Source: a virus
Length of the DNA stretch: 64,000 bases
Strand: one strand, 5' to 3'
Virus record (IMG/VR): IMGVR_UViG_3300030090_003995
Coordinates: 23,980 to 87,979 of that record
The translations under genes were made by a program, and so were the position numbers. The notes under the pieces are model-generated. The model saw only the letters and a program-made list of their open reading frames with translations, searched no databases and had not been told where the DNA came from. This document shows positions 2,557-64,000 of the stretch, in pieces (the first letter of the stretch is position 1; every line of letters starts with the position of its first letter).

Positions 2557-5500
2557 ATGACATTACTAAAAGCCTATCTAATGAATAAGCGTGACCCGTT
2601 TACATTAGCGAAGGCTTTCCTTGATGTGCTTAAAGATGAACAAGCATGGAGAGAAGAACAATTAGGTGAGTTAGGTGCAAAATATTTCAGTGATGCGATG
2701 GAGTTTTATGAAGATGAACTTGCTGAAATCAATGGTAAGATTGTAGAAAATAATTCTAAAATTAAAGAGATTAGAACAAGACTTGCCCCTAATTATACTT
2801 TTGAAGATAAAATTGAGTATGAGGGTCCAGATGGTGAAACCTTTATTCGTAGAGAAACTAGAGGTCTTACTGATGAAGAATCTAATTTGGAGCGTTTAGA
2901 ACTAGAAAGTGCTGAATCTCTTAATAATGATTATGCTGAAATAAGGGAGTCTGTCAACGGTCACTTATCTGATTTAACTACACACTATACTAATTTAACA
3001 GGTGAGGAATACGATAGAAGTGATGAAAATAAAATACGTTTGACCTTAAAGGGGTTAAAAATATTAGCAGATAGAATAGATGATTTAGGTGAAATTAAGC
3101 CACCCGATTCTATAAAACAATTGGATGCTAATTTAGAAAATGCTAAGAAACTTTACGAAAGGTCATTAGAAGAATTAAAATCAGATTTACAGGAAAAAAA
3201 TGCTCCCCAAGATATTATTACTAATGCAACTGCTAAATTAAAACGCAAGTTTGATACAAAAATGTCTACATTAGAATCATCAAGAAGTGGTATGTCTAAG
3301 AGTTATGAATCTTTACTATCTCAAAAATATAAACTTGAACAAAGAATTATTAGAGGAAAAAAAGATTTAGAAAGAATGGGTATTGATGTAAAGGAATACG
3401 GCCCGAAATATTCAAAAGAATCAGACTTTAAAAAACCACAGTCTAAACCTGAAACAGCGGAAGAGAAGAAGGCTAGAGAAGAAAAAGAAGAACAGGAAAA
3501 TCTTGAAAGAAGAATAGATTTGAAAAAACAAGCGTTAGTCCGTTTAGCAAAAAGAGCCCTTGAATGGGAAAAACAAGGTTTTATTCCTGGCCCTAAATAC
3601 AAAGCGGGAAGAAGAAAAACTACGGGAAAATTAGATAGAGATTATGCTCGCCCAATTAAAAGTGGAAAATACAAAGGCATTACCCTTAAAGGCGATGAGG
3701 TAGAATTAGATGCAAAAATGACTAAACTGGTAAATGATAGCAATATTGGTGTCAATGAACTTATTAGTCAGGTTAATAAACTTAATCCAAATTTAACTAT
3801 TTCTCTTCCTGAAACACAAAAAACTGTTGACGTAAAGAGGGATATTAGAGGGCTTCCAATAAGAGATAAGGATGGGAATGAAATACCAGTTAAATTTGGT
3901 GAAAATAAACCATACACTCAAGAAGAAATATCTCGCGCTAAGAGTCAAGAACAGAAAGAATATATGGTGCGTATGAATAATTTAGGTATCGGTAAGGGAA
4001 AAAGAAAAGTTAAACAAACCGCTGGTAATTTAAAAAATTGGAAAGAGTGGAGAGAAGAGTTTTCAAGAGTAGTAAGTGATGAAAATCTTCAATTAATGCG
4101 CAACCAATTAAATGATTTCTTTAAAGATTTAGACCCTGAAGTTATGCGTTTATTTGATAAAGATGCACATTCCACTGACACTACTAGATTTGGTTTGGCA
4201 TCAAGCAAAGAAGGTTCAGATGGTAACATTAAATGGACTAAACATGTTAGCAGAAGAAAAACATTACAAATATTAGGTAAGATTTTTTCTGAGGCACTAA
4301 GGACTGATATTTTATCTGATATACAAAAAGTTAATGCAGAGAAAATTCTGAATGCTATTGACGAGGAGTTAGGGATTTCTGGCGGAAAACAAATTAGAGA
4401 ACAACCGGTTGCTGACCAGCAAGTTACTAATATGATGGAATTACTACAAGATTTTTATGATGAGACTCAAATTCTTTTAGAATCTGATACTGATGATGAA
4501 TGGAATGAAGAACCAGTTGAAAGGTTAGAAGATTTAACTGAAGAAGTTGCACAATTATTACAGGATATGGATGAAGAAAATCCTTCACAAGAAGATTATG
4601 TTAATTTATTAATTAGATACCATTTAATAAATGTCACAATTAGGGAATTGGGTAGAGAATTACCAAATCAAGCCTTACAAGCAAAACGTTCTTTAAGAGA
4701 ATATTTAGATTCATTAGAGAATAGATATGAAGATATGTATGGTAATATTGCTGATGATAAGTTACAATCTTTGCAACGTCTTGCTCAAGATTCAACTGAT
4801 TCCGAAGAAGATAAAAGAAAATTAGAACAAGAAATTAGAAGAACATCTACTAAAACTTCTTGGAAACCACCTAAAGGTTATCATGATAAAGATGATACTG
4901 TTAGAAGAAGAGAAAGGGTAAAATTACATAAAGCAGAATTACAGATGCATATTGATATATTTAAACGGTTATCTGAAGGTGGAGAGGTAAAGATAACTAA
5001 ACCTATTAGACACCCTGACCAAACTGATAAAGAATATGCAGAAGCAAAACGTAGGTTTGAACCTAAAGTAATTTCAGGTAAAAAAATTCCTAAAAGGCAA
5101 GGTAATCAAAGACCTCTAAAACAGTTAGCAGAAATGGTAATTCCTAAATTTAAAGTGGATATGGAAAAATCTAGACAAAAGCGATTGTATGGTAAAATTT
5201 TAACTCAAGAACGTATTGATGGTATTAGAAATAATTTGGTTGCAGAATTAGGAAGAGGTGAAGAAGTTGATATTGAGAATTTTGATAGTTTATATTCTTC
5301 AGCGGTAGATATTATAGGGCCAAAATCTTATACTGATAGATATAAACAGGTTAAGACTCTAACAGGTAAAGAATTAGAACAACTTGGTTTAGAGGATGTT
5401 AAAGAAGAGTTTTTAGCAAGAAGAGTTAGAGGTGAAGGTACTGATGACGAAGAATTTATTCCTGATTCTGAAATTAGTGATGCCGATGAATTTGATGCCG

Positions 5501-13960: not shown

Positions 13961-14305
13961 ATGAGTCATGCAGGATGTAGAAGTAGTGGTTTAATTACCG
14001 CAGATACGTTAGTTAATACAGGTCAATGTAAGTTAATTAGTTTTCATGGTTATAATAATCATGCGACCGATGCTTGCACAATTAAAATTTATGATAATAC
14101 TGCCGCAAGCAATCCACAAATAGCAGAAATTTATTTGCCCGGAAAATTGTCATCTGTTATGGATGATACATCAGGTGGCGACCAAGAGGCTAGGACCGCA
14201 ACGGCGGTTAATTTTGAATGTGATTTTCATGCTATTCTTTGTAGAAATGGAATTTATGTTGATGTAACAGGTGGAACACCTCGAATATTTATTGAGTTTG
14301 CATAA
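13961..14305 (+). CDS. small beta-rich putative virion protein
   Basis: AGGTGAT RBS; alternating beta-strand pattern (IKIYDN, NGIYVDVTG). Confidence 0.55.
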   Translation: MSHAGCRSSGLITADTLVNTGQCKLISFHGYNNHATDACTIKIYDNTAASNPQIAEIYLPGKLSSVMDDTSGGDQEARTATAVNFECDFHAILCRNGIYVDVTGGTPRIFIEFA

Positions 14306-56033: not shown

Positions 56034-56263
56034 TCTTCCTCCTCCTTCATTTTTTGAATTTGTGGGTCCATCATGCCCATTAACATCTGTTGTACAATTG
56101 TTAAACAATCTCGCATTCCCATCATGTGGCCCAAAGCGAATGGTAATGATTCATAGTAAATTTCAATTAATTCTTCCAAAGATTTACCACTTTTCTCTTC
56201 CAAGAAGCCTTGTGCATCTTGAACGCCCTGTAACAATTCTTGAAAATTAATTTTACTCATCAT
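56030..56263 (-). CDS. hypothetical protein
   Basis: GGTGAG RBS upstream of MMSKINF. Confidence 0.55.
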   Translation of the reverse strand: MMSKINFQELLQGVQDAQGFLEEKSGKSLEELIEIYYESLPFALGHMMGMRDCLTIVQQMLMGMMDPQIQKMKEEEE

Positions 56264-56501
56264 TCTCACCATTAAATAAGTTAGGCCAGATTTCACCAAA
56301 TGCAGAATTTACATCGGTTACTAAAATTCTTTGTGGACCTTCGCCCCATCTTCTCCCCTTTGCATCTTGCGCTCTTTCCGCAAGAAACACCATCAACGAT
56401 TCAATATTTGCGATGAATGTTTTCTTTGCACCGCTTGTCCATTGGTCATTACTCTTCGATTTCTTTATTATTCTCTTCATTTCTAGTTCGCTCACCATCA
56501 T
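56253..56501 (-). CDS. single histone-fold protein
   Basis: MKRIIKKS...WTSGAKKTFIANIESLMVFLAERAQDA...RILVTDVNSAF parallels the alpha1/alpha2/alpha3 layout of archaeal histones. Confidence 0.6.
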   Translation of the reverse strand: MMVSELEMKRIIKKSKSNDQWTSGAKKTFIANIESLMVFLAERAQDAKGRRWGEGPQRILVTDVNSAFGEIWPNLFNGENDE

Positions 56502-56694
56502 TAATCCTCCCTAATATGTTTGCCAAATGTCTTAATTCTGTCATGTTAATCCTAATACCCTTCCGCGTAGGTTTACCATCCTTATGCCAACGAATATCTA
56601 CAATAGGAATATTCCAATATTTACCAGTTTTTATTAGTATTTCTTCCGTCGCTGTTCTTGGAATGCGACCTCTCACTTCAAAATCATCAGCCAA
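56449..56694 (-). CDS. PC4/YdbC-like ssDNA-binding protein
   Basis: VDIRWHKDGKPTRKGIRI signature. Confidence 0.85.
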   Translation of the reverse strand: MADDFEVRGRIPRTATEEILIKTGKYWNIPIVDIRWHKDGKPTRKGIRINMTELRHLANILGRINDGERTRNEENNKEIEE

Positions 56695-58251: not shown

Positions 58252-58485
58252 TTATTCCTCCGTATACATTACATCTTGCCAATGAATACAAATATATCCA
58301 TTCATTGGTAGCGCAGACCTATGTTGTTTGTAATAAACTTTCTTACCTATCAGAGTTTTAAATTCTTCCGGGCATTCCTCACCGATAGAAATTACTTTCA
58401 TCGCCGCACCCTGATTAGTCACAATTCCAGACTCAGTAGTTTCTTCAACATGAGCCATTACTACCCAATTTCCATACGCTCTCAT
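58252..58485 (-). CDS. groES: GroES-like co-chaperonin
   Basis: GNWVV, EETTESGIV mobile loop, KVISIG, GKKVYY; directly upstream of groEL. Confidence 0.75.
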   Translation of the reverse strand: MRAYGNWVVMAHVEETTESGIVTNQGAAMKVISIGEECPEEFKTLIGKKVYYKQHRSALPMNGYICIHWQDVMYTEE

Positions 58486-58640
58486 TCTTCTTCACCAACT
58501 TCTTCTAACATACTTAATGCGATTGCATAGATAATATCATGCTTCTCTTCAGGCCATTCTTTATTTAGAATATCCCAAAGGATTACAGAATCCTCATCAC
58601 TTACTTTATTTGCTACTGCTTTTACTAAATCAATATTCAT
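58482..58640 (-). CDS. small hypothetical protein
   Basis: MNIDLVKAVANK... after GGTGG RBS. Confidence 0.5.
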   Translation of the reverse strand: MNIDLVKAVANKVSDEDSVILWDILNKEWPEEKHDIIYAIALSMLEEVGEEE

Positions 58641-58773
58641 TAAAACCACCACTCTCTTCATTTGTGTAACCACACTTACGACATTTCCAAAAATATACAA
58701 ATTGGACTTGTCTACCGTCATAACTTCTATCATGCTCTTCTCGCATATTTGCACCACACATAGGACACCTCAT
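58630..58773 (-). CDS. small Zn-ribbon protein (47 aa)
   Basis: Manual translation MRCPMCGANM...WKCRKCGYTNEESGGFNEY*. Confidence 0.6.
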   Translation of the reverse strand: MRCPMCGANMREEHDRSYDGRQVQFVYFWKCRKCGYTNEESGGFNEY

Positions 58774-59228
58774 TCTTCTTCACCTCCGACCCAATCAGGA
58801 ATTTCTACTCTTTGATAAAATACAGTTTGGGGTTCTCCCTTTCGCCATTCCATAGATTGATTGTCACCTAGAACAATTGCATAATTCATAATAGGTTCCC
58901 ACGTTTTAATTGTGTTCCAGTCTGTTCCTGAAAAATATGCTTGACCAAACGGATGAGTATGAATCCAACATTCGATAGGTAAAGTCATTCCCGTAGGTGG
59001 TTCTTTAAACCAAACAAATCCGGGGTCTCCGGCAGAAATATAAATATTCATCTTACCATCAATAACCACTTGCACTTCGCGCCCAATATCAAACGCGGTT
59101 AAACTCATTTCCCAAATAGTATCTAAGAAATTCTCGTCTACAAATTCAAAATTTCCATCAGCCCAAGCATTCTTAATCTGCTCTTCCCAATCTTCAATCT
59201 TCACTTCAATACTTTCACTTGACAACAT
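58770..59228 (-). CDS. JAB/MPN+ (JAMM) metalloprotease
   Basis: GREV...WIHTHPFGQAYFSGTD = E...HxH(x7)SxxD. Confidence 0.9.
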   Translation of the reverse strand: MLSSESIEVKIEDWEEQIKNAWADGNFEFVDENFLDTIWEMSLTAFDIGREVQVVIDGKMNIYISAGDPGFVWFKEPPTGMTLPIECWIHTHPFGQAYFSGTDWNTIKTWEPIMNYAIVLGDNQSMEWRKGEPQTVFYQRVEIPDWVGGEEE

Positions 59229-59434
59229 TAAATAATCCCTCCAATATTGTTGGCAACATAAATTCCAACCAATACTACTATTACACCCACAAGGAAATAC
59301 TTCCCATTGGATTCTGATTCTTGCTTTGTTTTATATTGTTGCCAATCGTCATGGCTAATAAAACGTACTTTACCATTTTCATCCTTTACATAAGGTCTTC
59401 CATTCTTCGCAATAAACACTCTTTTATCATTCAT
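59228..59434 (-). CDS. small C-terminally anchored membrane protein
   Basis: YFLVGVIVVLVGIYVA transmembrane segment. Confidence 0.6.
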   Translation of the reverse strand: MNDKRVFIAKNGRPYVKDENGKVRFISHDDWQQYKTKQESESNGKYFLVGVIVVLVGIYVANNIGGII

Positions 59435-59651
59435 TTACATACACCACCGGATGGTCAAATGCTTTTCCGCATCCACAATGTCCTTCTCTTCTCCACTTTT
59501 TTCTTCCTTTGAAATCATAACCGTCAAAAATCATACCACGGCCTGTTATATACAGGGCATCAGGCGTTAAAGCCCAAAGTCTACCGCATCCTTTTTCCGG
59601 ACATTCCCATCTTACTAGTTTCTTATTTCTTCCTAATCCTTTCAATGTCAT
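59427..59651 (-). CDS. small Zn-finger protein
   Basis: CPEKGC...CGCG. Confidence 0.55.
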   Translation of the reverse strand: MTLKGLGRNKKLVRWECPEKGCGRLWALTPDALYITGRGMIFDGYDFKGRKKWRREGHCGCGKAFDHPVVYVNE

Positions 59652-59779
59652 TTTAACACCACCATAACCAATACACACAACGTGATAATATTCACCACAT
59701 TGACTGTAATAATAATTCTATTTGTTTTTTCTATCAGAACATTTAACTTCTCTAATAGAATATTTGTATCATCCATCAT
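59648..59779 (-). CDS. small coiled-coil + TM protein (43 aa)
   Basis: Manual translation MMDDTNILLEKLNVLIEK...IITLCVLVMVVLK*. Confidence 0.55.
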   Translation of the reverse strand: MMDDTNILLEKLNVLIEKTNRIIITVNVVNIITLCVLVMVVLK

Positions 59780-59781
59780 AC

Positions 59782-60354
59782 TCACACATTCACAACCTTA
59801 AAATCTGCTACATCATCTTTTGCAAAATATCGGTGAATCCATTCAGCACCCATACCTGCGGCAATTACATGAGAAAAATGTTGTCCTTCTGTTGAACCAT
59901 CCCATGAATCACCTTGACAACTAAATGAACCTTCAGGTCCGGCTAACAAAGTATCATGTTTGTTTTTATCAGCCCTGTAAGAAATGTAAGCACAATTTCT
60001 ACCCTGCGCTCTCAAATCTAACCATTTAACATTAGAGCGATAAAGTAACCGGCGCACATCTAAATTGTCAGCACAACAGACTACCAAATCATACCCTTTA
60101 ATTTGCTTCTCAGTTAAAATTGGATAAGAAATATGCCTTGTAACAGATTCATAATTCCAACTCATTACCGATGCTTTATTCATTTCGTTCTCTTTTGACT
60201 TAAAATTCTGATAAGTTAAATTCTTTTTCTCAACATTATCAGGGTCAGCCACAACCATATCATATACCTTTGTCTTATCTAGAAGCGGAATCAAGTAACT
60301 TCCAATTCCACCTGCACCAATCATCAACATCTTTCTATTCTTTTTTCCTTGCAT
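59782..60354 (-). CDS. ThiF/E1-like adenylyltransferase
   Basis: IGAGGIGS, DPDNVEKKNL..Q, NKA, CCADN..VRR; SCQ as candidate thiolating Cys. Confidence 0.9.
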   Translation of the reverse strand: MQGKKNRKMLMIGAGGIGSYLIPLLDKTKVYDMVVADPDNVEKKNLTYQNFKSKENEMNKASVMSWNYESVTRHISYPILTEKQIKGYDLVVCCADNLDVRRLLYRSNVKWLDLRAQGRNCAYISYRADKNKHDTLLAGPEGSFSCQGDSWDGSTEGQHFSHVIAAGMGAEWIHRYFAKDDVADFKVVNV

Positions 60355-61315
60355 TCTTATGCACTCCTTCTACAAATTCATCAAACGTCATTAGTGGGGT
60401 CCACTTATCAAAAACGTCTTCTCTCGTTAGATTAACTAACTTCAATACTGCTATTAGATTATTTCTCAGGGTTACTTCAGTAATATTACAAACGTCAGAA
60501 ATTTCCATCTGCGTTCTCAAAGAACCAGTTGGGTTCAACCTACCCGCTAAATAAATACAAGCGGCAACAAAACCAGTATTTGCGGTAACATATTTACTTT
60601 CAGCAATCTCAATCATTAACATAGTTAATTTTACTGAGGCACTTGTCAAGTCGTTATCTGCCCCCAACAAATTGCAATATTTTTGCACTTCATCAGGAAT
60701 ATTTCTTTGCGAGAGAATCCACGGCTTTCTAAAGAAAGTAGCAATTCTTCTTGCACTTTTAGCAACTTGTCTAGGATGTGCGCTATTTTTAGCACAAATT
60801 TCATCAATAGTCCTAGAAATACCATTATCCTTAAATGTGTAATATACTAAGGCCGCCGCTCTAACTTCCAACGACATTCCTGATAATATTCTTTCTCTTT
60901 GGGTTGTCTTATAGTTCCATAAAACTTGGTCTCTTAAACTTTTACCCGCACCAAATTCTGATGCCAACATATTACATAACACTAACCCCTTTGATAGATT
61001 TCTTTCATGTGTAGTTTTATGATTTATCGCGTGTGTTCTTCTTAAGATTCTCCCAATTTTTGAATTATCTCTCGAACCATCTAAGTTGGTCATTCCTACT
61101 ACACTTCCTAACACAAAACCCTCTTGTGTCGGATTATGTGTTCTTGGAGAATTTGGGTCGTTTGGTCTTTCTTTGCCAGATGAAGTTGCCTCTAACATTT
61201 CATCTTGTAACACAAAACCACAATCTTCACAATACAACTCACCTTTATTAGAGTCTAATTTTAGATTTCTAGAATTACATTCTGTACATTTCACAATATC
61301 TTCTACGTCGGACAT
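60335..61315 (-). CDS. tfb: transcription initiation factor IIB (TFB)
   Basis: Zn ribbon CTEC...GELYCEDCGFV; two cyclin repeats (RTIDEI; RTQMEISDVCNITEVTLRN). Confidence 0.92.
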   Translation of the reverse strand: MSDVEDIVKCTECNSRNLKLDSNKGELYCEDCGFVLQDEMLEATSSGKERPNDPNSPRTHNPTQEGFVLGSVVGMTNLDGSRDNSKIGRILRRTHAINHKTTHERNLSKGLVLCNMLASEFGAGKSLRDQVLWNYKTTQRERILSGMSLEVRAAALVYYTFKDNGISRTIDEICAKNSAHPRQVAKSARRIATFFRKPWILSQRNIPDEVQKYCNLLGADNDLTSASVKLTMLMIEIAESKYVTANTGFVAACIYLAGRLNPTGSLRTQMEISDVCNITEVTLRNNLIAVLKLVNLTREDVFDKWTPLMTFDEFVEGVHKNARKKE

Positions 61316-61491
61316 TATTCCATCTCCTCTATTTTGTAAATAGCCACTTGTCTTCGTATATTTGACATAACATCGGCTAATTCTCGTATGTCTTTTTCGG
61401 CTTCAACCCATGCTTCTTCGTCTTCACAAATAACAATAGCAGTTATTACCTTTCTAATTTTAGTTGTGTCTAAACCACTTGGCGTTTTCAT
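61315..61491 (-). CDS. hypothetical protein (58 aa)
   Basis: Manual translation MKTPSGLDTTKIRK...; overlaps both neighbours. Confidence 0.55.
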   Translation of the reverse strand: MKTPSGLDTTKIRKVITAIVICEDEEAWVEAEKDIRELADVMSNIRRQVAIYKIEEME

Positions 61492-62702
61492 TTATTAATC
61501 ACTCCTTGTAAATCTTTCATTGAAATATTAGGCAAATGTAATCTAGCCTCAGTTTGACCATCGTAATGGTTGTCACTTAAATAATGGCTAATTGTGCTAA
61601 CAATTTCAATCGTCATCTTATCATTCAGTAATGCAAATGCTCTGGCCGCAAATTGGTCACCCACTGATGAATGTTTGGTCATGTTATCAATACAAATTGG
61701 TCCTTTAAGGAAACCATCATCAAATGGTATTTGACGGTGACTATCACCAATATCAAAAACATAAGTCGATACTGCTTGAATTTCGCTCTTGAATTGGTTA
61801 TCAGTAATTACCCAATCTGCCATTTTACCTTTAACAATAATTGCCTTAACAGTGTTATTATCCCAAAACACTTTCATTCTATCCTTGTAAGTAACAGACA
61901 TATCCTTAACTAATTGATAGGCTCTTTTCTGCACTAACTCATCAGTCCTGTTTTGTTGTAGGAATGCAACCATCATATTTTCTTGGGCAGTAGTTGGTAC
62001 TTCACCAATAAGTCTATGCCACAACTTTTTAGGCGTTAATCTAGCCTTAAACCAAGAAGATGATTTTTGACCATGTAAATAATAATTCATGTAAGTATTC
62101 ATTTTCTTAATTGAAATTGGAGCCCAGATTCCATCTGAAATCTCCATAGCGCATTCATCCGGCCCAATCATTTTAACATTGAATCTGACTTCAACCTTTT
62201 TACCCTTAAGATACCAATGATAGGGCGCACGATTTTCTAGAGCATATGAAACATTTTCAGGTAAAAGTATATTGTTAAAACAATATTCTGCCAACTTCTG
62301 CACATCTTCTTCAAAACATGAACGGTAAATAGTTCTTGCTATTGCAGTAACGGCAGTATCTTTTGTAGTTATCATTCCTTGAATCATATATTTATTTCCA
62401 TCTTTATGACAATGAATCTTAGCACCATTAATTATAATGAACCCACTAAAACTTGGGCGACCCTTTTTACCCCAACCCAAATAAGAATTCACCCACATTT
62501 TAATTGCCTTAATTGTGGGTTCTCTGTCGTTTCGATAATGGTTTGGGTTGATGGTATTAGATTGGTAAGTATGGTATCTACGACTCCACGCACCATAATT
62601 TGGTGTTTGAAACCAAGTCATATTCTGACCTTCCACATCAATAGTGGTTTTATATTTTTTACCAGAATCATCTGGCGCATTAATTTCTAAATTTATACTC
62701 AT
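61488..62702 (-). CDS. hypothetical protein with a possible E2-like C-terminal motif
   Basis: 404 aa; GPICIDNM resembles the E2 G-x-ICLD catalytic loop (weak). Confidence 0.5.
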   Translation of the reverse strand: MSINLEINAPDDSGKKYKTTIDVEGQNMTWFQTPNYGAWSRRYHTYQSNTINPNHYRNDREPTIKAIKMWVNSYLGWGKKGRPSFSGFIIINGAKIHCHKDGNKYMIQGMITTKDTAVTAIARTIYRSCFEEDVQKLAEYCFNNILLPENVSYALENRAPYHWYLKGKKVEVRFNVKMIGPDECAMEISDGIWAPISIKKMNTYMNYYLHGQKSSSWFKARLTPKKLWHRLIGEVPTTAQENMMVAFLQQNRTDELVQKRAYQLVKDMSVTYKDRMKVFWDNNTVKAIIVKGKMADWVITDNQFKSEIQAVSTYVFDIGDSHRQIPFDDGFLKGPICIDNMTKHSSVGDQFAARAFALLNDKMTIEIVSTISHYLSDNHYDGQTEARLHLPNISMKDLQGVINK

Positions 62703-62866
62703 CTTAATCCTCTCGTTGTTCTTTTAAAATTCTTGTCACATTTATCGTGACGCTCTTTCTTTTGTTCTGTCGGGTCAAGTAATTGACCTCCACATATTCG
62801 ACACCTTGTTGCAATTCTTTTCATATACGACCGTTTACTTTTAGTGTATTCCGGGTCTTTACTCAT
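62699..62866 (-). CDS. small Zn-finger protein (55 aa)
   Basis: Manual translation ...TRCRICGGQLLDPTE...HDKC... Confidence 0.55.
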   Translation of the reverse strand: MSKDPEYTKSKRSYMKRIATRCRICGGQLLDPTEQKKERHDKCDKNFKRTTRGLR

Positions 62867-63195
62867 TCTTCCTCCTCCGTGTCTAGTAAATATTTATACA
62901 ACATGACACGCAGTAAATCAGCAGGGTAGCGTTTTAATTCTCCCCAAGTATATTCTTCATCACCAATAATAGGGCGGTATCTTGCCATATCTTGCCCAGT
63001 GCGTTCTTTGGTGTAAAAGGAAGTCAATGTATATTCATACAATCCACCCCTAATATCCTTTCTAACAACGGTTCTAGTTTCAGTCCAAACTCGTTGACCA
63101 CCTCTAGTTCTGTCAGGGTTAACCTTATCTTTAAACAGGTTAATCATGTCACTCTTTTTCATATCTTTTAATTCTTCATATCCTTCAAAATTCAT
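62863..63195 (-). CDS. hypothetical protein
   Basis: ORF track. Confidence 0.55.
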   Translation of the reverse strand: MNFEGYEELKDMKKSDMINLFKDKVNPDRTRGGQRVWTETRTVVRKDIRGGLYEYTLTSFYTKERTGQDMARYRPIIGDEEYTWGELKRYPADLLRVMLYKYLLDTEEEE

Positions 63196-63483: not shown

Positions 63484-64000
63484 TTATCCACACTCAGAAT
63501 GTCCACATTTATCGCAGGTGGCGCAACCACCTTGAAATACCATATTGCCATCTTCACAAGTATGACAAGTTTCAGTATAGGGGTCATCACTTCTTGATGC
63601 AAATTCTTTTAGAACGTTTGAAATCTGTGCAACGGTTCCACGCATAGAACCCTTTGACTTCTCCAATTGCTCAATCAACTTATCAAGTGGGATATGATAC
63701 CTTAGACCCACTGAAATAAGTCTAGAAATGCTATCCAATTGCTCACGCCTTTGAGTGTGTTCAATTGTTGGCCGATTCAAATACGGATAGTTCACGAACA
63801 TCTCAATAGGAGTATTCTCATAATGAGATACAGTAATGTAAATGTATTCATCCTCAAGACCTTCAGCCGGTAATCGGAATCTAACTGCTTCGCTAATATC
63901 ATCTAAATCTTTAGGTTTAGTTTTACTTTCGCTAGTATTCAATACTTGAACCGACTTTGACCCATCACGATAAATAGTCACACCTTTACAATTATTCTCC
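63484..64000 (-). CDS. nrdJ: class II ribonucleotide reductase, 3' end (runs off the window)
   Basis: Frame is open to the window edge: NCKGVTIYRDGSK; TSCPD-type domain (ISRLISVGLR); C-terminal CHTC...GGCATCDKCGHSECG. Confidence 0.85.
   Translation of the reverse strand, partial: ENNCKGVTIYRDGSKSVQVLNTSESKTKPKDLDDISEAVRFRLPAEGLEDEYIYITVSHYENTPIEMFVNYPYLNRPTIEHTQRREQLDSISRLISVGLRYHIPLDKLIEQLEKSKGSMRGTVAQISNVLKEFASRSDDPYTETCHTCEDGNMVFQGGCATCDKCGHSECG

Follow-up and report, generated by a model that had tools for sequence, protein, structure and literature searches.

A probable ubiquitin-like conjugation kit encoded by magrovirus-type archaeal viruses

The window analysed here is a stretch of 64,000 nt from a contig of 87,979 bp, whose source is a magrovirus-type archaeal virus of the ocean. 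On its minus strand we observe four genes, all real open reading frames in the ORF list of the window: a 152-aa JAMM/JAB metallopeptidase in which the E...HxHx7SxxD motif is complete (58770..59228), a minimal E1-like adenylyltransferase of the ThiF superfamily, 190 aa long (59782..60354), a viral transcription factor B, TFB (60335..61315; Pfam matches to the TFIIB repeat at 6.9e-12 and to Zn_Ribbon_TF at 2.6e-9), and a 404-aa protein, p404 (61488..62702), whose family is so far found only in viral or metagenomic contigs. At higher coordinates on the same strand lies a ribonucleotide reductase (RNR) gene cut at the contig end, of which the C-terminal 171 codons, with the TSCPD domain only, are left (63484..64000); in the relative G001 this RNR is complete, at 719 aa.

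The E1 matches Pfam ThiF with E 7.5e-14 and 51.9 bits (cut-off 28.1), the match being confined to the N-terminal half and covering profile positions 20–130 of 238 only. The alignment of its family (18 members) shows as invariant GxGGIG, DPD, N45/Y48/Q49, K60, D96-N97, R101-R102 and G-S-F-S-C146-Q, so the motifs that bind ATP and Mg are kept throughout along with one Cys. Throughout this family the motif is NLxYQ, with Tyr for the usual Arg of NLxRQ, and CxxC pairs that would form a Zn site are absent, C93 and C94 being the only conserved cysteines beyond C146; no rhodanese domain is seen in the E1 either. The preliminary description had named the small size, the missing CxxC pairs, the Tyr-bearing motif and the SCQ Cys, and the family alignment agrees with it in all of them. 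The best NCBIfam matches are ThiF and MoeB, while UbaA reaches 30 bits vs a cut-off of 450, and in the PDB the family profile finds MccB, UBA5, Cap2, Uba4 and NAE1 (2e-8 to 1e-6). In metagenomes, 772 E1-like clusters of 185–190 aa are present. In the literature, one paper names the ThiF gene alone, as a common archaeal-virus gene. About one third of a normal ThiF domain is missing from this E1, as is the conserved Arg, which counts against the reading we prefer below.

Twelve homologues of the JAB peptidase all share E51, H90-x-H92, S100 and D103, in agreement with the earlier description of an intact JAMM protease downstream of E1. It scores 19.6 bits (E 9e-4) with Pfam Prok-JAB, under the cut-off of 25, which counts against our preferred reading, and its profile matches AMSH-like JAMM deubiquitinases over the motif (E 0.005–0.02). 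Three small ORFs separate it from E1 (59228..59785, minus strand): a 45-aa membrane protein (59651–59785), a Zn-ribbon protein (59427–59678, start probably 59651) and a membrane protein of 68 aa, hydrophobic at its C-terminal end (59228–59434). They are conserved in the window's own clade only (L002–L008), whereas E1 directly abuts JAB in L010–L014, and they probably do not belong to the kit.

The gene order p55–p404–TFB–E1–JAB–chaperonin–ligase, where p55 is a 55-aa protein, is conserved in all 13 loci found by E1 and in 68 of 68 loci with sufficient flank found by a ubiquitin-like protein (Ubl) described below; because it is kept in both sets, chance is ruled out as the source of this arrangement. 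Co-occurrence of E1 and JAB, a check proposed in the preliminary description, is strict (13/13 and 68/68, respectively). The genes of p404, E1 and JAB lie on one strand in 68 of the 76 Ubl loci, the remaining eight stopping before the expected position of E1, and TFB occupies the same position in 66 of the 76, with 20–60% identity. Genes of the kit are interspersed with TFB, RNR and small ORFs and do not form a tight operon, a feature counted against our preferred reading.

A Ubl was reported missing from the window, and we find that it is missing from the entire contig, with no match to ThiS, ubiquitin or Prok_Ub at E<=5 and none to the Ubl family profile, which matches four relatives at E<=1e-33. 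The suggestion that the virus has its own Ubl elsewhere in the genome holds for its relatives: a 66-aa ThiS/MoaD-like Ubl with Gly-Gly is present in relatives, at 68 loci together with E1, but is absent from the source contig. In the four relatives it lies on the far side of RNR, two genes past it in G001, and in the closest relative (L002) at locus bases 80–274, approximately 2.2 kb past the point where the source contig stops. As the source contig ends within the RNR gene that separates the Ubl from the module, the Ubl gene is missing from it; judging by these four relatives, the source virus itself would have one. Over the 68 loci the Ubl is located 2.8–6.5 kb upstream of E1. The GG is invariant in 76 viral loci and is followed by a variable tail of zero (11 loci), one (38) or two (27) residues. 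The Ubl alone gives no match to Pfam ThiS; aligned by HHalign with 13 ThiS/MoaD sequences, its family alignment reaches a probability of 95.6% over 62 columns, GG on GG, while 40 controls with shuffled columns stay at or below 1.6% and reversing the alignment gives 0.5%.

Proteins of the ThiS/MoaD-like class are also used in sulfur transfer, which counts against a conjugation reading. The E1 might adenylate this protein, host enzymes would convert it to a thiocarboxylate needed to thiolate tRNA or make cofactors, and JAB would merely mature the carrier. Maturation of a carrier by a JAMM protease has precedents in QbsD/QbsE and Mec/CysO, and the viral set shares with these, as well as with the ThiF/MoeB–ThiS/MoaD pairs, a GG carrier, an adenylation core of the ThiF type and the removal of residues past the GG by a JAMM protease. 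The profile comparison of the tag and the top NCBIfam matches of E1 point in the same direction, as does a published note (PMC8276007) that classes viral ThiF/MoeB as an auxiliary metabolic gene. Still, we consider sulfur chemistry very unlikely. The preliminary description listed no sulfur-transfer genes, and we observe no rhodanese, MoaE or Ncs6/TtuA-type families, and no enzymes that would donate or accept sulfur, either in the source contig or in three near-complete genomes (93–97% complete). In addition, the E1 has neither a rhodanese domain nor a Zn site and carries Tyr for the Arg of NLxRQ, the set is accompanied by p404, a conserved Cys-bearing UBC-like protein, and its genes are placed in the early/replication module, adjoining TFB and chaperonin genes, not metabolic ones.

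p404 has no family assignment in Pfam, PHROG, NCBIfam or PADLOC; its family comprises 163 representative clusters. In the AF2 model (pLDDT 88.1) the N-terminal two-thirds are predicted to consist of repeated beta-meander-plus-helix units, and residues 250–404 (155 residues; 61491..61955, minus strand) form a putative UBC/RWD-like domain (pLDDT 92.2, pTM 0.89), built of a helix, a beta-meander, a loop bearing Cys337 and further helices. The GPICIDN...LLND stretch, earlier likened to the E2 catalytic loop, is confirmed, and the domain matches almost only UBC, RWD and UEV folds, with weak scores. In 52 relatives C337, D349, Q350, R354, N360 and D361 are invariant. The family has a single invariant Cys, C337, located in G-P-I-C-I-D-N right after the last strand, about ten residues before the next helix, and in the model its position corresponds to that of the E2 cysteine. 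The best VIA-align rows are the FANCL ELF domain (Z 5.2), UBE2S (Z 4.8; 111 residues aligned, rmsd 4.4), Ubc9 (Z 4.6) and RWD (Z 4.5), and the best 50 are nearly all E2, RWD or UEV domains, bacterial BubB and CdnG-E2 among them; all scores are Z<=5.3, and Z<8 can reflect a common arrangement. The comparison with UBC folds by Foldseek, proposed earlier, yields almost exclusively E2s among the best 50, with E>=0.2 and TM of about 0.33.

In the predicted complex of the E1 dimer with p404 the score is 0.53, compared to 0.01 for the best of three controls; the runs share at least 88% of contacts, and partner pLDDT is at least 74. Of 80 solved complexes, 58 attain the mark for this score, as do two of 110 mismatched pairs; scores of 0.60 or less comprise just seven of the 80 solved complexes plus both passing mismatches. 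Support from the complex is weak. Based on a predicted fold of low similarity and one invariant Cys, the C-terminal domain of p404 is a candidate E2, and this is the weakest part of our reading because the fold scores are low, p404 matches no sequence family and the E1–p404 complex is weakly supported.

In Haloferax sampylation no enzyme besides the E1 UbaA is known to be needed. By analogy, Ubl, E1 and JAB might be a full tagging system in which the E1 transfers the tag directly. p404 would then lack catalytic activity and act as an RWD/UEV-like adaptor or, in transcription, as a partner of TFB, next to which it is encoded in nearly all loci. The low UBC fold scores agree with such a role, non-catalytic RWD and FANCL ELF domains scoring equal to E2s, and so does the lack of an E2 sequence signature: no E2 Pfam family matches the 52 family members at E<=1, and p404 has no HPN motif. 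On the contrary, the sole invariant Cys, which occupies the E2 position within a G-x-I-C-[LI]-D-like loop, the finding that p404 accompanies E1, JAB and Ubl in every one of the 68 loci, and the predicted E1–p404 complex, which weakly passed the mark, argue for a catalytic p404, and we regard transfer by E1 alone as rather unlikely.

The explanation we favour as probable is a virus-encoded Ubl conjugation kit, conserved across magrovirus-type archaeal viruses, in which JAB trims, E1 activates and the E2-like p404 carries the tag; the window probably holds three of its four parts. As the Ubl gene would lie just past the broken contig end, the virus probably tags proteins on its own. The 66-aa tag would be made with zero to two extra residues past its C-terminal GG, which JAB, the proposed trimming enzyme for this precursor, would remove; JAB is possibly also a deconjugase, taking the tag off targets. 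With ATP, the E1 would adenylate the exposed glycine, possibly followed by a thioester on the invariant Cys146, and the tag could then be handed to Cys337 of p404. The extra N-terminal domains of p404 would select targets, presumably viral or host proteins, and a separate E3 would not be needed. The interpretation in the preliminary description, that the virus conjugates or removes a modifier, is supported and its observations are confirmed: UBC-like matches to p404 are present, with weak scores, E1 and JAB co-occur, and a sulfur-transfer partner is absent from three near-complete genomes. As a possible purpose it had suggested takeover or counter-defence.

By analogy, the kit may work like bacterial BilABCD or archaeal sampylation, being a member of neither. 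BilABCD of Types I and II consists of the Ubl BilA, the E2 BilB/CEHH, the JAB deubiquitinase BilC and the E1 BilD, and in Type II the deubiquitinase pre-processes the Ubl, exposing a glycine, upon which E1 and E2 conjugate it to lysines (PMC10557695). The same four kinds of parts are seen here, including a Ubl precursor with residues past the conserved Gly and a JAB that would expose it, as well as an E1 and an E2-like protein that has diverged and is hard to spot by sequence, and no dedicated E3. However, the viral genes are spread over approximately 5–8 kb among RNR, TFB and small ORFs, compared to a Ubl–E2–DUB–E1 operon, and belong to an archaeal virus rather than a bacterial defence island; the viral E1, just one domain of 190 aa, has neither the inactive adenylation domain nor the mobile CYS domain, and the 404-aa E2-like protein has extra N-terminal domains.

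Sampylation in Haloferax volcanii employs SAMP1–3, the E1 UbaA and the JAMM protease HvJAMM1 (PMC4895103). The common features are a ThiS/MoaD-like tag with terminal GG, a MoeB/ThiF-type E1, a JAMM protease and the archaeal setting, and the known Haloferax targets include the transcription factor TBP2. The viral set differs in that its E1 is shorter than UbaA by about 60 residues and has no Zn site, its tag alone has no Pfam ThiS match, and an E2-like partner accompanies it.

Type II CBASS with Cap2/Cap3 also combines E1-type adenylation with a JAB that reverses or processes; Cap2 E1-E2 models are the best PADLOC matches of the viral E1 (down to 8.8e-11) and the only ones, with no match to Bil models, and Cap2 chains are among its PDB profile matches. 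However, Cap2 is an E1-E2 fusion conjugating the CD-NTase C-terminus, while the viral kit has neither CD-NTase nor fusion and has a separate beta-grasp tag. As bacterial Bil and Cap2/Cap3 are antiviral (PMC10557695) and Cap2 models lead the PADLOC matches of the E1, the kit might act mainly on a host Ubl system; e.g., JAB could free viral proteins of host tags, and the E1/E2-like pair could divert or mimic host components. Among named Atlas clusters the closest to the Ubl is a ThiS family of Thermoplasmatota archaea (score 0.84, a lead only), which could fit such interference. We find interference most improbable, since the virus family retains its own Ubl with invariant GG and precursor tail, as expected of a write system that is self-contained; moreover, a scan of cellular genomes gave the short E1 on two MAG contigs only, one of them magrovirus-like.

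Two small genes flank that of p404 on the same strand. The 58-aa ORF between p404 and TFB (61315..61491), with no match in the family search, is present in three of the 13 E1 loci (L002, L005, L008) at E<=1e-3. The Cys/His-rich p55 (62699..62866) is encoded directly upstream of p404 wherever detected, that is, in all 11 of the 13 E1 loci reaching far enough upstream, with 38–71% identity; its family search gives weak Zn-ribbon matches only, and we can speculate that it is an adaptor or E3-like.

The source contig from IMG/VR (87,979 bp, CheckV completeness 93%), of which the window covers bases 23980-87979, is magrovirus-like in its gene content. It has genes for a GroEL-type chaperonin (Cpn60_TCP1, 2e-43) and for an ATP-dependent DNA ligase (1.5e-36), together with a fragment of a class II-type ribonucleotide reductase (RNR, 63484-64000, minus strand), and TFB along with a large block of late genes. 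Magroviruses, which are tailed, have been attributed to archaea of Marine Group II (Philosof et al., 2017, PMC5434244). The genes of the candidate conjugation kit found in the window, and the conserved neighbours p55 and TFB, are all encoded by the minus strand: a 55-aa Cys/His-rich protein (p55, 62699-62866), a 404-aa candidate E2 (p404, 61488-62702), TFB (60335-61315, a clear match in Pfam), a 190-aa ThiF-like E1 (59782-60354), and a 152-aa JAMM peptidase (JAB, 58770-59228). The order p55, p404, TFB, E1, JAB, chaperonin, ligase is retained in all 13 viral loci found with E1, and E1 is better conserved in them (57-86% identity to the window copy) than TFB (22-60%) or p404 (30-65%). The spacing between E1 and JAB differs between clades: only in the clade of the window are they separated by three small ORFs (59228-59785, minus strand), encoding a Zn-ribbon protein and two predicted membrane proteins (45 and 68 aa), while in the clade comprising L010-L014 the two genes abut. 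The 45-aa predicted membrane protein is 91% identical in the relative genome G001.

The preliminary description reported no clear ubiquitin-like protein (Ubl) ending in GG, and indeed neither the ThiS, ubiquitin and Prok_Ub models of Pfam nor a dedicated Ubl profile identify one anywhere on the contig; the ThiS model finds none in five relatives either, the sequence of the viral Ubl having diverged beyond the reach of the Pfam models. The contig ends within the RNR gene, of which only the last 171 codons, including the TSCPD domain, are present. The genome G001 (97% complete), which carries the L005 locus with an E1 75% identical to that of the window, is collinear with the contig and holds approximately 8.4 kb missing here, between the two contig ends. 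In this stretch, two genes upstream of a 719-aa RNR, we observe a small ORF with a conserved 66-aa core ending in PAIVGG-Y. Searching viral contigs with this ORF yields 76 loci, including those on the contigs of L002-L009. The GG is invariant in all 76, followed by a tail of no residues in 11 loci, one in 38 and two in 27, the tail residues being variable. In 68 of the 76 loci p404, E1 and JAB are located downstream of the Ubl gene on the same strand, with a Ubl-to-E1 distance of 2.8-6.5 kb (median 4.7 kb), and the remaining eight stop short of the position where E1 would be. Hence, all four kinds of parts, p404 being tentatively counted as the E2, are found together in each of the 68 relatives with sufficient flanking sequence. 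The joint occurrence of E1 and JAB, previously proposed as a check, is seen in 13 out of 13 E1 loci and in the same 68 Ubl loci.

A single Ubl sequence has no match in Pfam, its profile retrieves no Ubl among the PDB sequences, and the Atlas contains no structure for it. When the Ubl alignment is compared with 13 ThiS/MoaD sequences that PF02597 retrieved from bacterial genomes, HHalign gives a probability of 95.6% over 62 columns, with GG aligned to GG, compared to at most 1.6% for 40 column-shuffled controls and 0.5% for the reversed alignment. The Ubl profile identifies the gene in the relative genomes G001-G004 (E<=1e-33) and not in this contig. L002 is the closest relative, with an RNR C-terminus 100% identical to the one here, and its Ubl gene lies about 2.2 kb past the point where the contig stops. 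As the contig is cut within RNR and the relatives have Ubl beyond this gene, this virus almost certainly has the tag gene as well, a short way past the end of the assembly. This agrees with the earlier suggestion of an own Ubl elsewhere in the genome: in the relatives it is the 66-aa GG protein beyond RNR, and for this virus the assignment is made by comparison with them. A lesson for annotation is that the lack of a Ubl in a window can be an assembly artefact.

The E1 matches the Pfam ThiF family (PF00899) with 51.9 bits (cut-off 28.1, E 7.5e-14), covering only positions 20-130 of the 238 in the profile. Its best PADLOC matches are the E1 parts of CBASS Cap2 (8.8e-11), and the best NCBIfam ones are ThiF, MoeB and UbaA, each far under its own cut-off, while the profile of the E1 family matches MccB, UBA5, Cap2, Uba4 and NAE1 in PDB at 2e-8 to 2e-6. 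The family comprises 772 clusters of 185-190-aa proteins from marine metagenomes, and the E1 consists of a single 190-aa domain with no rhodanese domain. Invariant in 18 aligned members are G13-x-G15-G16-I-G18 (GxGGIG), the DPD motif (D37/D39), E42, K44, N45, Y48, Q49, K60, D96-N97, R101-R102, the DLRAQGRN block, and G-S-F-S-C146-Q. Thus the nucleotide-binding GxGxxG, the ribose-binding Asp, the Lys, and the Mg-binding Asp of the D-N motif appear to be retained in these 18 sequences, the roles of the residues being assumed by analogy with MoeB/ThiF. The features noted for the single window copy hold family-wide. In HMMER alignments, the Arg of the NLxRQ motif, present in 9egc and MccB, is replaced by the invariant Tyr48 (NLxYQ); no CxxC pairs, forming the Zn site of the MoeB, ThiF and UbaA type, are seen in any of the 18 sequences; and the cysteine of the SCQ motif, Cys146 in GSFSCQ, is invariant and is a candidate for the catalytic Cys of the crossover loop. 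The CxxC pairs are not universal in the E1/ThiF superfamily.

In cellular genomes, scanned with the E1 alignment, the short E1 is present on two contigs only, remaining matches being N-termini of ordinary ThiF proteins. One of them (L098), a 12-kb contig binned as a Maricaulis MAG, contains homologues of p404, E1, JAB and GroEL, and is probably a mis-binned magrovirus-like contig. The other one (L099, 5 kb) belongs to a Pacearchaeota MAG; its short E1 (3869-4429, 187 aa) has 35% identity, an LYS variant of the motif, and the ESCQ cysteine. The latter suggests that the minimal E1 family extends beyond magroviruses.

The presence of an intact JAMM protease downstream of E1 is borne out by comparison: the complete motif of JAB, E51...H90-x-H92-x7-S100-x-x-D103, is invariant in 12 homologues. 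The similarity to known families is low, with 19.6 bits for Pfam Prok-JAB, under the cut-off of 25 (E 9e-4), and weak matches of the JAB profile to AMSH-like DUBs in PDB (E 0.005-0.02).

The third part, p404, has no family match in four libraries. An exhaustive HMMER search yields 163 representative clusters of proteins of similar length, 52 of which were used as the alignment for an AlphaFold2 model (pLDDT 88.1), composed of repeated beta-meander-plus-helix units. The preliminary description saw in the C-terminal part of p404 a likeness to the E2 catalytic loop and proposed a Foldseek comparison with UBC folds. The full-length model has no Foldseek match in PDB at E<=0.001, while in the whole-model VIA search residues 253-390 are matched to FANCL-ELF, UBE2S, Ubc9, Ube2K and RWD domains with Z of 4-5.3. 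Residues 250-404 folded alone give a confident model (pLDDT 92.2, pTM 0.89), and among the best 50 Foldseek and VIA-align matches of this domain nearly all are E2, RWD or UEV, including the bacterial E2-like BubB and CdnG-E2, at low scores (Foldseek E>=0.2, TM about 0.33; VIA Z<=5.2). The order of elements in the domain model is helix 2-22, strands 27-87, Cys88 (corresponding to C337 of p404), and helix 98-110, so that C337 directly follows the last strand, about 10 residues ahead of the next helix. In UbcH5 the Cys is at position 85 and helix 2 at 99-111, and the positions of the elements, as modeled, nearly coincide; C337 is thereby matched to the E2 Cys by topology rather than by residue-level superposition. 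C337 is the sole invariant Cys in 52 sequences, and its context, G-P-I-C-I-D-N, resembles G-x-I-C-L-D-I-L of E2. On the other hand, the p404 consensus has no HPN motif upstream of GPICIDN, and none of the 52 members matches any E2 family of Pfam, UQ_con and Prok-E2 among them, at E<=1; p404 itself has no E2 match in PADLOC. The HPN motif is also missing from some bacterial E2-like proteins. The predicted complex of the E1 dimer with full-length p404 lends weak support, scoring 0.53 versus 0.01 for the best control: the mark applied to such scores is reached by 58 out of 80 solved complexes and 2 out of 110 mismatched pairs, and scores of at most 0.60 are seen in only 7 of the 80 solved complexes and in both passing mismatches. 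The agreement of contacts between runs is at least 88%, and the partner pLDDT at least 74. Overall, p404 is fairly probably an E2-like carrier.

The variable tail of zero to two residues after the invariant GG calls for a trimming peptidase, with JAB being the sole candidate. In the proposed cascade JAB would remove these residues; trimming of the same kind has been shown for pre-processing of BilA by BilC (PMC10557695). Then E1 would adenylate the exposed glycine of the trimmed Ubl, as expected from the retained ATP- and Mg-binding residues and the invariant Cys, perhaps with formation of a thioester, and the tag might be passed to Cys337 of p404 and further onto targets, possibly chosen by the large N-terminal part of p404. 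A role of the Ubl as a sulfur carrier is the classical alternative for ThiS/ThiF-like pairs, but, consistent with what was noted for the window, no genes of the rhodanese, MoaE or Ncs6/TtuA types are found in three genomes that are 93-97% complete, the E1 lacks both a rhodanese domain and a Zn site, and the set is always accompanied by a UBC-like protein that bears a Cys.

Returning to conjugation, in 66 of the 76 Ubl loci TFB is flanked by the E2-like gene and E1, and in Haloferax sampylation is known to target TBP2 (PMC4895103). Taken together, these two facts suggest, without showing, a link between the kit and takeover of transcription. A much bolder scenario, which we consider rather unlikely, is that magroviruses run their own minimal Ubl cascade during infection, consisting of the 66-aa tag, the 190-aa E1, and a three-domain E2 that would serve as its own substrate adaptor, and mark host proteins, e.g., defence proteins or the TBP/TFB of the host, so that the archaeal proteasome removes them as the viral TFB takes over transcription. 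If true, the viruses would have their own equivalent of the antiviral Bil systems of bacteria, with the smallest known E1.

The kit would work like Type I/II BilABCD and archaeal sampylation, without belonging to either. BilABCD is a tight Ubl-E2-DUB-E1 operon with a multidomain E1 (IAD, AAD, CYS) (PMC10557695), whereas the viral Ubl and E1 genes are 2.8-6.5 kb apart, with RNR, TFB and small ORFs in between, the E1 has a single domain, and Bil models do not match the kit. As for sampylation, the UbaA model scores the viral E1 at 30 bits, with the cut-off of 450. The kit genes are mentioned neither by Philosof et al. (PMC5434244) nor in a 2023 magrovirus survey. In a single paragraph, Coutinho et al. 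(2021, PMC8276007) name a ThiF/MoeB gene as one of the auxiliary genes seen most often in archaeal viruses and tie it loosely to ubiquitination. In the literature on magroviruses, archaeal-virus ThiF/JAB, and phage Ubl kits we found no description of the tag, JAB and an E2-like partner as a set. The original observation is confirmed, and its reading as a Ubl-type conjugation module is supported.

Prokaryotic Ubl-E1-E2-JAB systems have so far been studied as cellular ones: in bacteria these are the antiviral Bil/Bub/CBASS systems, and in archaea sampylation. Among marine archaeal viruses, magroviruses are one of the most abundant groups, and here the same Ubl logic is represented by their conserved core genes. 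An E1 of about 190 aa would redefine the minimal activating enzyme, and sequence searches do not reveal the E2-like p404 family. Should the kit conjugate proteins, it would serve as a small and tractable model for transfer from E1 to E2 and as a test of Ubl conjugation on both sides of virus-host conflicts.

Several other small proteins with C-terminal GG were considered as modifiers. The 47-aa CxxC...CxxC Zn-ribbon ORF (58630-58773, minus strand), whose start overlaps the stop of JAB in ATGA and which ends in SGG-FNEY, is rejected: its GG doubles as a ribosome-binding site, being part of a Shine-Dalgarno-like GGTGG that precedes the following ATG by 6 nt, and neither GG nor position is conserved (of the homologues in L002, L003 and L006, the L003 copy lacks GG and the L006 copy does not adjoin JAB; L005 lacks the gene). 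This ORF overlaps the N-terminal part of a mechanically called 91-aa ORF (58482-58757), whose true start is probably the ATG near 58641. A family of 70-73-aa CxxC...HxxxH proteins (L009:6519-6728, L010:7174-7392, L012:7097-7315, L013:7096-7314, L014:3112-3330), with no homologue in this genome, always adjoins E1/JAB in one magrovirus clade. In L009 its gene is located between the two, in the other loci behind JAB. The proteins terminate in GG and one to three residues (GG-A or GG-LVP), and in L013 GGAGG doubles as a ribosome-binding site; the family is rejected as a Ubl by an HHalign probability of 0.1% versus ThiS/MoaD. Also rejected is the 68-aa protein ending in GG-II (59228-59434), which has a hydrophobic C-terminus and GG not conserved in L002-L006. 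In a 105-aa late protein ending in GG (genome positions 13963-14277) the GG overlaps the start region of the next gene.

Runs of Glu (GEEE, EEEE) or GG-EEE terminate many proteins of this virus, e.g., at 58770-58790, 58482-58500 and 62863-62880. These C-terminal runs arise where the following gene overlaps and has its ribosome-binding site (GGAGG/GAGGA) inside the coding end, so that C-terminal GG or EEE is often a by-product of translational coupling.

The genes around the chaperonin include a 77-aa ORF (58252-58485, minus strand) directly upstream of it, GroES-like by eye and kept at the same position in most related loci, with no match to Cpn10 in Pfam at E<=0.01; magroviruses were assumed to have no co-chaperonin (Philosof et al., PMC5434244). 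The chaperonin and the ligase are separated by two small conserved ORFs (56253-56694, minus strand), encoding an 82-aa protein, histone-fold-like by eye and with no Pfam match, and an 81-aa protein weakly similar to PC4, an ssDNA-binding transcriptional coactivator (E 0.0013, under the cut-off). Finally, more than 20 otherwise unrelated late-module proteins (window 1888-22032 and genome 7470-23800) share the start M-S/T-W-x-x-I/V-L-K, e.g., MSWQDILK, and the 105-aa protein ending in GG belongs to this MSWxxILK group.
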